Virus record (IMG/VR): IMGVR_UViG_2609459801_000008
Direction: 5' to 3' (one strand)
DNA from: a virus
Lineage: Duplodnaviria > Heunggongvirae > Uroviricota > Caudoviricetes
DNA: 14,589 bases
The notes under the pieces are model-generated. The model did no database searches and had not been told where the DNA came from. It saw only the letters and a list, made by a program, of their open reading frames with translations. This document shows positions 13,835-14,410 of this stretch, one piece after another; within the stretch, counting starts at the first letter, position 1, and the number at the start of each line of letters is the position of its first letter. A program made the position numbers and the translations under genes.

Positions 13835-14196
13835 CATTCATTCCCCATTTCGGTGATGGTCAGTTCCAGCCTCCCACCTTTGGTAACAGGCATCTTCACA
13901 ACGCGGTAATCAACGACCTGAGCATCATCCAGCCAGAAACCTGCTTTAGTGAGTGCGTCAAAAGCGGCTTTTTGCAGATTATCCAGGTCACGGCGACGGC
14001 GATCCGGCATGTGGCACTCAATGCGGATTTTCACAGGCATAGTCAGGCCGATATCCAGCATTGCGTTTTTAATGATTCGGGCGACGTTATCGCGGTATGC
14101 CTGCCCCTCTGCGCTGACGTGCGTGCGCCCGCGATTATGGCGGTAATAGCGATTATTGCTCGGAGGCCAGGGTAATGTGATGCTGTAGGTATTCAC
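13834..14196 (-). CDS. rusA: Holliday junction resolvase RusA
   Basis: 120 aa, [38 protein letters not shown]…, recognised as RusA. GTG start at 14196 overlapping the upstream reading frame (GTGA). Confidence 0.93.
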
Positions 14197-14282
14197 GCCT
14201 TAATAACCCCCTCTTTCAGCCAGATAACCTGTGTTCTCGCCATACCTTCCAGCGCGCATTCTTTTGCATATGCAGCATCGAC
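14193..14282 (-). pseudogene. Remnant of a ybcO-like nin-region gene (C-terminal ~29 codons only)
   Basis: The frame coupled to rusA translates …[29 protein letters not shown], matching the YbcO C-terminus as I recall it. Upstream the similarity is lost and the frame hits stops at 14322-14324 and 14328-14330, with no usable start. Confidence 0.4.
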
Positions 14283-14410
14283 TTGCTTGGCATGCCCTTT
14301 ACCGGCAATCTTCTGTATGCGCTAAACCTAGATAGAATCCACTCTGTGCACATTGAAGCCCGCTCTATGCTTCCTTTCAGGTATTGAAGGGATTGAGATG
14401 GGCTAAGCAT
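14216..14410 (-). CDS. Hypothetical ORF, possibly chimeric across the recombination junction
   Basis: 64-aa ORF whose ATG overlaps the stop of the upstream partial ORF (ATGCTTAG). Its 3' part overlaps the ybcO-like remnant in another frame. Doubtful as a functional gene. Confidence 0.25.

Follow-up and report, generated by a model that had tools for sequence, protein, structure and literature searches.

A ybcO fragment upstream of rusA as the probable scar of two nin-region recombination events in a lambdoid prophage

Introduction

Sharp joints between modules, at which homology is minimal or absent, are a textbook hallmark of how lambdoid phages evolve, and most of those described lie at gene boundaries; the mosaic 'novel joints' of these phages were reportedly described by Hendrix, Juhala, Clark and colleagues. 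The present work concerns a joint located inside a gene, namely ybcO of the nin region, directly upstream of rusA, on a stretch of Caudoviricetes DNA of 14,589 nt (IMG/VR record IMGVR_UViG_2609459801_000008). This whole stretch is referred to below as the window, with position 1 being its first letter. The phage genes of the window were found to be encoded on the minus strand, as read from a list of its open reading frames (ORFs) and from the reverse complement. Genes of the nin region are known to lie close together, with stop and start codons that overlap (PMC8022706), while DUF1364, the family of YbcO, has been classed as a His-Me finger (HNH-like) nuclease from the structure 3g27 (PMC5714182).

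Three described arrangements are related to this locus. The first is the module of phage 82, of DLP12 of Escherichia coli K-12 and of phage PhiR34_1, which from position 14282 downstream is 95-99.8% identical to the window and shares with it the same rusA, ylcG and Q-family genes, together with the GTGA overlap of the ybcO stop and the rusA start. In these modules a full ybcO of 96 codons follows ninE and ybcN, whereas in the window ybcO codons 1-67 are absent and the left neighbours are ninX and a remnant of ninF. The second is the P22/lambda-type order ninX-ninF-ninG (for example in a prophage of E. coli BUCT2930), with which the window shares the 3' end of ninX and codons 1-21 of ninF at about 92% identity, the overlapping stop and start included. 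The ninF of the BUCT2930 type is complete, encoding 58 residues with cysteine motifs, and is followed by ninG, whereas ninF homology in the window stops at about 14348. The third is that of Shiga toxin 1 (Stx1) phages (AU6Stx1, SH2026Stx1 and O157/O111 prophages), which have in common with the window a ninF remnant of codons ~11-20 and the next ~70 nt of a cassette edge, at 88% identity. The cassette of the Stx1 phages runs for ~2.8 kb with a gene of 590 residues and is followed by the 3' end of ninF, an HNH gene and ninG, whereas in the window ~65 nt of it are followed by ybcO.

The region between ninX and rusA is very probably a scar without function, produced in the nin genes of a lambdoid prophage by two illegitimate recombinations, one after the other. 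In the first of these, which would be the older and common to the Stx1 phages, the middle of ninF would have given way to a cassette that spans ~2.8 kb and includes a gene in reverse orientation, with the outcome that the first ~20 ninF codons became joined to the left edge of the cassette. In the second, belonging to this lineage, DNA ~65 bp into the cassette edge would have been joined to ybcO codon 68 at the 5-bp sequence CGATG, the right-hand parent being a ybcO-rusA-ylcG-Q module of the 82/DLP12 type. This would have removed the remaining cassette along with the first 67 codons of ybcO. The rusA gene would stay intact with its own Shine-Dalgarno sequence, since that site lies within the retained tail of ybcO, and an ORF of 64 codons that crosses the scar would probably be translated and would maintain ribosome cover on the early-right transcript as far as rusA.

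Breakpoint inside ybcO

The frame whose TGA stop (14195..14193) overlaps the GTG start of rusA, as GTGA, was found to carry the 3' end of ybcO. The 90 nt from 14282 to 14193 are identical (90/90) to the full-length ybcO of phage PhiR34_1, and the 29 residues encoded by 14282..14196 are identical (29/29) to residues 68-96 of its YbcO protein, which has 96 residues. Comparison of this protein with the window using tblastn gave residues 68-96 as the sole significant match (100% identity, E = 8e-16). Agreement with the sequence of PDB entry 3g27, a full-length YbcO, was almost as close (28 of 29 residues), the difference being VDAGY in 3g27 and VDAAY in the window.

When aligned in register with PhiR34_1, positions 14282..14193 showed 100% identity and rusA 98.7%, and the 200 nt preceding 14282 (14482..14283) showed 28.5%, the last of which is chance level. 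All relatives with a full-length ybcO, including phage 82 (orf96-rus), PhiR34_1, 4A7, Perceval and many chromosomal prophages, begin to match at query position 308, which is position 14282 of the window. The exceptions are alleles that differ from the window at a base soon after the junction (for example DLP12 of K-12), for which the alignment is trimmed to position 314. A sister prophage of strain 2017.15.02CC (NZ_AP027818.1), which occupies the same chromosomal site beside ybhC (the lambda attB region), matches the window at 99.7% identity between 11895 and exactly 14282, and beyond this base it carries a complete ybcO, ninE and ybcN. The change from near-identity to no similarity is abrupt and falls at the same base in many comparisons. 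Since a prophage at the same site is near-identical up to exactly 14282, the junction is a true mosaic boundary between two prophages that are otherwise almost identical.

A different explanation for a truncated gene of this kind would be a full-length ybcO disrupted by a frameshift or small indel, and pseudogenes called by the Prokaryotic Genome Annotation Pipeline (PGAP) are indeed often frameshifts, although this is a general argument. The probability of such a disruption here is negligible, and it was ruled out, as the window contains neither 5' DNA of ybcO nor its N-terminal peptide and upstream identity is at the level given above. The 201 nt of the ybcO 5' part returned only chance 9-18-mers from the window with blastn, and YbcO residues 1-67 returned no match anywhere in the window with tblastn. 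A single indel in a full-length ybcO is excluded because the window holds no 5' part of the gene; moreover, the DNA upstream has other identifiable origins (ninF and the cassette edge).

Where the two homologies meet, CGATG is the only sequence common to the cassette-edge relative and ybcO. The alignment with the cassette-edge relative reaches 14276, while that with PhiR34_1 begins at 14282. The bases shared at the joint are few, in a comparison for which the nearest available sequence on the left side has just 88% identity to the window.

The original prediction, made from the letters and ORF list of the window alone, had described a YbcO-like C-terminus of about 29 codons in the frame coupled to the rusA start, two stops upstream in that frame, an overlapping ORF of 64 codons in a different frame, and a mosaic breakpoint inside a nin-region gene. 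Each of these was borne out by the comparisons. The alignment that it had proposed with DLP12 and other lambdoid relatives placed the breakpoint at 14282, where similarity is lost abruptly and not by frameshift, and revealed no full-length homologue hidden by an indel. It had also called the sequence upstream unrelated, which holds with respect to ybcO (28.5% identity) but not in general, as this DNA can be identified as the 5' end of ninF and the edge of the Stx1 cassette.

A further truncation of ybcO was observed in DLP12 of E. coli O6:H16 M9682-C1 (NZ_CP024275.1, 2346-2556), where ybcO was cut by an independent deletion at the base that corresponds to 14251. There, DNA from close to a DUF4222 gene is followed directly by ~19 remaining codons of ybcO and an intact rusA.

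State of the ybcO fragment

The fragment aligns to positions 62-92 of the 92 positions of the YbcO profile of Pfam (PF07102), scoring 18.2 bits. This is under the cut-off of 29.9 bits, as expected for a fragment, while the full-length YbcO of PhiR34_1 scores 138.7 bits with the same profile over positions 2-92. Most of the profile positions are therefore not covered by the fragment. The region of the His-Me finger and cysteine clusters (residues about 12-60 of 96, a range that is our own reading of the 3g27 sequence) is absent from it, as is the zinc-binding part, only residues 68-96 being encoded. The retained stretch is homologous to the 3' end of ybcO, which is a statement of descent and not of function. 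Because the part with the cysteine clusters and the conserved histidine has been lost, the remnant is predicted to be incapable of acting as a nuclease.

Translation of the fragment in its own frame is also not expected. The two TAG stops of the ybcO frame sit 13 and 15 codons upstream of it, and its sole internal ATG (MARTQ...) has a GGAAGG only 1 nt away, which is too close to act as a Shine-Dalgarno sequence. Owing to these two upstream stops and the lack of a start with a usable Shine-Dalgarno sequence, the frame is predicted to be untranslatable, and ribosomes should not arrive there.

Origin of the DNA upstream of the fragment

The 120-nt stretch that separates the ninX stop from the ybcO fragment was used as a query against complete E. 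coli genomes, and three classes of match were obtained. The first covers the full length of the query and was found in 584 genomes with the same arrangement. The second covers positions 1-55 at about 87% identity and lies within annotated ninF genes, while the third covers positions 27-120 at 88% identity and lies in unannotated DNA of O157/O111-type prophages.

Positions 14410..14348 are identical at 56 of 63 nt to the ninF of an O157 Stx1 prophage, representing its first 21 codons, and NinF residues 1-21 were matched with tblastn at 76% identity (E = 6e-7). In the query numbering in which position 308 is window position 14282, a prophage with ninX-ninF-ninG showed 91.8% identity over positions 133-242, an alignment that ends at window position 14348. 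Overlapping this stretch, positions 14376..14276 are identical at 88 of 101 nt to unannotated DNA of strain 2013C-4187 and of Stx1 phage AU6Stx1, in which the matching DNA lies between ninE and the reverse-oriented gene of 590 residues. In AU6Stx1, nt 35-55 of ninF lie directly to the left of the cassette stretch, while nt 157-189 of ninF are found ~2.8 kb further, at the start of HNH/ninG. As remnants of ninF flank the cassette in AU6Stx1, the cassette appears to have replaced the middle of ninF in the Stx1 phages. What remains in the window is the start of ninF, followed by ~65 nt from the left end of the cassette. Going by these alignments, the region upstream of the ybcO fragment is best described as two nested junctions.

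IMG/VR was scanned for the conserved core of the middle segment, as an exact pattern. The segment was found in 117 contigs and in two contexts only, 81 of the window type and 36 of the Stx1 type.

The ninF cassette of the Stx1 phages (L002 2095-4094; L008 3609-6277) was itself seen to consist of the reverse-oriented 590-residue gene, AT-rich non-coding flanks and a short run of TTTCTA repeats. In one IMG/VR copy of the locus (14380-14400 region), a 9-bp unit, TCAATCCCT, is triplicated within the ninF 5' remnant, in frame for the 64-codon ORF.

The chimeric ORF of 64 codons

The ORF that crosses the scar is composed of ninF codons 1-21, then ~22 codons over the cassette edge, and then ~21 codons of ybcO read out of frame. 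Using tblastn against phages, the whole ORF was found only in the same mosaic arrangement (27 records); its residues 10-45 correspond to Stx1-phage DNA that bears no annotation, and its residues 44-64 to ybcO in the wrong frame. A Pfam search of the ORF returned no family. Nor can it be assigned to NinF, a protein of 58 residues that is cysteine-rich after residue 20, as only residues 1-21 align and the remainder of the ORF shows no relation to it. The AGGAGG ahead of its ATG corresponds to the native translation-initiation region of ninF and is presumed to function as such, and as this initiation site was inherited the ORF is likely to be translated.

Variants were counted among 71 ungapped copies, representing 45 haplotypes. 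For the 64-codon ORF these comprised 13 nonsynonymous and 6 synonymous variants (a ratio of nonsynonymous to synonymous polymorphism, pN/pS, of about 0.6), and for the ybcO-frame fragment 8 nonsynonymous and 4 synonymous variants (pN/pS also about 0.6), numbers that are too few for a firm result in either. For rusA, 26 nonsynonymous and 37 synonymous variants were counted (pN/pS 0.21). The values for ninX in the same table are unreliable, different ninX alleles probably having been mixed. The ORF and the ybcO fragment look to be under relaxed constraint relative to rusA, for which the variant pattern indicates purifying selection on what is, by prediction, a Holliday-junction resolvase.

These results bear on whether the ORF is a real selected gene, that is, a new small protein that arose when the ninF start was fused to cassette DNA and the ybcO tail was overprinted, and on account of which the junction is maintained. 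Such a gene would be in keeping with the strong AGGAGG, with the coupling of the ATG to the ninX stop, with a frame that is open in every ungapped copy and in all 27 phage records, and with the several phage annotations in which it is called 'protein ninF' or hypothetical protein. However, its pN/pS is the same as that of the dead ybcO frame and well above that of rusA, no Pfam family is assigned to it and it is without the cysteine motifs of NinF after residue 21. In addition, its middle third is non-coding, stop-bounded DNA in the Stx1 phages, it receives no PGAP call and it exists in one arrangement only. A selected gene is thus considered improbable, and the ORF is probably a by-product of the scar, translated but not selected. 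Slightly less credible again is the proposal that the ORF is a recently born translated microprotein that starts at the ninF initiation site, passes through what was non-coding cassette DNA and overprints the end of ybcO in a new frame, that has spread to about 11% of complete E. coli genomes, and whose translation now delivers ribosomes to rusA. Were this true, it would be a natural case of a de novo coding sequence assuming the coupling role of a lost gene.

rusA and its translation signals

RusA of the window scores 83.4 bits with its Pfam profile (PF05866; cut-off 22.8) over positions 1-123 of 124 and is thus a full-length member of the family, and PGAP names the gene rusA. The RusA protein of the window has Thr52 (position 14043), while Ala52 is found in five other copies of the same arrangement.

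The GAGGGGG within the ybcO tail is the presumed Shine-Dalgarno sequence of rusA here, and the phage 82 record X92588 has a ribosome-binding site for rus annotated in the homologous stretch. The stop of the 64-codon ORF lies 19 nt before the rusA GTG, just ahead of this site. The original prediction had further held that the joint keeps translational coupling into rusA. In that form the claim lacks support. Physically the GTGA overlap is kept, but the ybcO frame is closed by stops and has no usable start, and any coupling into rusA would more plausibly proceed by way of the 64-codon ORF than through the ybcO frame.

Scans for sigma-70 promoters and terminators gave counts at shuffle expectation and no site in 14197..14410, and scans of the whole window with Rfam (at the gathering threshold) and for tRNA genes gave nothing. 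The predicted fold of the rusA leader RNA was not more stable than that of shuffled sequences (z = +1.3 for the window and +1.5 for a relative with full-length ybcO).

It could be proposed that the retained ybcO tail is selected as a cis-acting leader of rusA, as a ribosome-binding site or through coupling, in which case the position of the junction would not be accidental, and working rusA expression would have been confined to recombinants that kept the final ~30 codons of ybcO. The location of the Shine-Dalgarno sequence within the tail and the annotation of phage 82 agree with this, as does the close packing of nin genes with overlapping stop and start codons (PMC8022706), and the independent deletion in M9682-C1 also spares the last ~19 codons of ybcO before an intact rusA. 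Nevertheless, a ribosome-binding site needs only about 20 nt, whereas 90 are retained, and the tail has 12 variant sites in these 90 nt among the 45 haplotypes, one of them at 14205, between the Shine-Dalgarno sequence and the GTG. Two independent junctions are also too few to show a bias of breakpoints, and the leader has no special RNA structure. Selection of the tail is therefore regarded as unlikely, though less so than selection of the 64-codon ORF.

History of the scar

Between copies of the window type and of the Stx1 type, the shared segment has diverged by 12%, while on the ybcO-rusA side identity to extant relatives is still 99-100%. On this difference, the first event would be the older of the two and the second more recent. 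The layout of the locus, its parents, its breakpoints and its distribution can be read directly from the alignments and counts, while the order of the events, the translation of the 64-codon ORF and any effect on rusA expression are inferred.

Some observations weigh against the two-event account. No intermediate, with ninX, the 5' end of ninF, the full cassette and ybcO-rusA, was found in complete E. coli genomes or among the 117 IMG/VR contigs, and because of this a one-step deletion in situ and an exchange between co-resident phages cannot be told apart. The closest cassette-edge relative is just 88% identical to the window, which makes the extent of the microhomology uncertain (5 to 7 bp) and which also suggests that the true left parent lies outside the collections searched. 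Lastly, the 64-codon ORF is open in 71 of 71 copies, which would also fit weak selection, although the lack of a stop across its 19 variant sites is not significant, being not unlikely by chance. With these points considered, a scar of two successive events is still the reading that is preferred.

Distribution and existing annotation

Of 5426 complete E. coli genomes, 583 contain the whole 790 bp of 13800..14589, in many cases at 100% identity, and the same arrangement is present in 27 phage records and 81 IMG/VR contigs, a recurrence well beyond what chance would give. Phages with the arrangement include ev207, ev017, ev099, ev243, 2G7b, 1H12, mEp332, PhiR11_1, PhiR57_1, PhiR63_2 and Chlobot. 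An assembly or sequencing artefact was ruled out on these grounds, as those 583 genomes, all with the identical 790 bp, were assembled independently and the arrangement recurs in the phage records and contigs. Since phage isolates with complete genomes also have the arrangement, phages that keep rusA can evidently do without YbcO, so far as can be inferred.

In EC1515, 81EVA and EP91A, the PGAP entry for precisely 14282..14193 reads 'DUF1364 domain-containing protein; incomplete; missing N-terminus', and hundreds of E. coli genomes have the remnant marked as a pseudogene in public annotation. PGAP makes no call for the 64-codon ORF, which phage records label 'protein ninF' or 'hypothetical protein'. 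For the ninX part, the PGAP label in EC1515 is 'phage protein NinX family protein'. The truncated ybcO is thus already recorded in public annotation, and no new mechanism is involved. The scar would explain both the recurrent pseudogene call in RefSeq and the recurrent spurious call of 'ninF' or 'hypothetical protein' in phage records.

Locus layout

The features of the locus are collected in Table 1.

Table 1. Features of the ninX-rusA region of the window and of the genes downstream.
Feature	Position	Strand	Description and basis
ninX, 3' part	14403..14589	-	Clipped by the window end; TAG stop 14405..14403; Pfam Phage_P22_NinX, E = 3.5e-14, profile positions 46-114 of 114
Shine-Dalgarno sequence AGGAGG (presumed)	14417..14422	-	6 nt before the ATG of the 64-codon ORF; read from the sequence
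Chimeric ORF of 64 residues (ninF')	14216..14410	-	TGA stop 14218..14216; ATG overlaps the ninX stop by 8 nt; ORF list
ninF-derived segment, codons 1-21	14348..14410	-	Alignment to ninF of an O157 Stx1 prophage and tblastn
Cassette (moron) left-edge remnant	about 14283..14347	-	Non-coding in Stx1 phages; similarity to DNA of 2013C-4187 and AU6Stx1
Two in-frame TAG stops	14330..14328 and 14324..14322	-	Frame translation of the ybcO frame
ybcO (DUF1364) 3' fragment, codons 68-96 and TGA	14193..14282	-	Pseudogene remnant; identity to ybcO of PhiR34_1
CGATG microhomology, putative crossover point	14276..14280	-	Register display of the three parents
GAGGGGG, presumed Shine-Dalgarno sequence of rusA	14207..14213	-	10 nt before the GTG, within the kept ybcO tail; read from the sequence
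rusA	13834..14196	-	120 residues, GTG start, intact; Pfam RusA, E = 2.6e-23
ylcG	13837..13697	-	ORF list
Q-family antiterminator	13626..13234	-	Pfam Phage_antitermQ, E = 2.5e-51

Other features of the prophage

The stretch that follows Q and precedes the lysis genes (10321-13078) was found to hold cargo consisting of an AraC-type helix-turn-helix gene, a DUF523/DUF1722 gene and a lipocalin gene. The first of these is annotated as frameshifted in EC1515, the second is of the YbgA, 2-thiouracil-desulfurase-like type, and the lipocalin gene is encoded on the other strand. In related phages the place of this cargo is taken by an ompC/ompD porin. A gene for a potassium transporter of the trkG type (TrkH family, E = 1e-144), resembling trkG of the Rac prophage, was identified at 7365-8840 in the late region, between the lysis and packaging genes. 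At 5724-7227, between trkG and the head-tail genes, a TET-associated glycosyltransferase domain (TAGT, E = 7e-35) and a ParB N-terminal domain were recognised in neighbouring ORFs, which may form a DNA-modification cassette.

At 5749-5751 the window is without 7.6 kb that are present in a near-identical prophage of 81EVA (L012 11421..19053), the joint having a 3-bp overlap near the end of the TAGT-like ORF. The 7.6-kb stretch of 81EVA encodes the small and large terminase, a DUF4055 portal, a minor head protein, a DUF6651 protein and a P22-type capsid protein. Since this terminase, portal and capsid stretch is missing, the prophage of the window is predicted to be defective. Positions 1-331 match the end of an IS1 element at 99.7% identity (IS1B in the 2017.15.02CC sister prophage). 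This end abuts an ORF of 632 residues (327-2225) with the tape-measure domain TMP_2, whose intact homologue in 81EVA has 1077 residues, and the tape-measure gene appears to have been truncated by IS1.

Comparison with known joints

The value of the locus is as a base-resolved example of nin-region modules being reshuffled inside non-essential genes, and the finding matters little beyond tidy annotation. The joint at 14282 resembles the novel joints of lambdoid phages in its sharp passage from near-identity to no similarity, in the few bases shared at the crossover and in its location in the non-essential nin region. It differs from most of them in lying inside a gene and in leaving a pseudogene fragment behind. 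Such a joint is what would be expected for a dispensable gene and is unremarkable in this respect, being not a new category of joint but a further member of the one already described for lambdoid phages.

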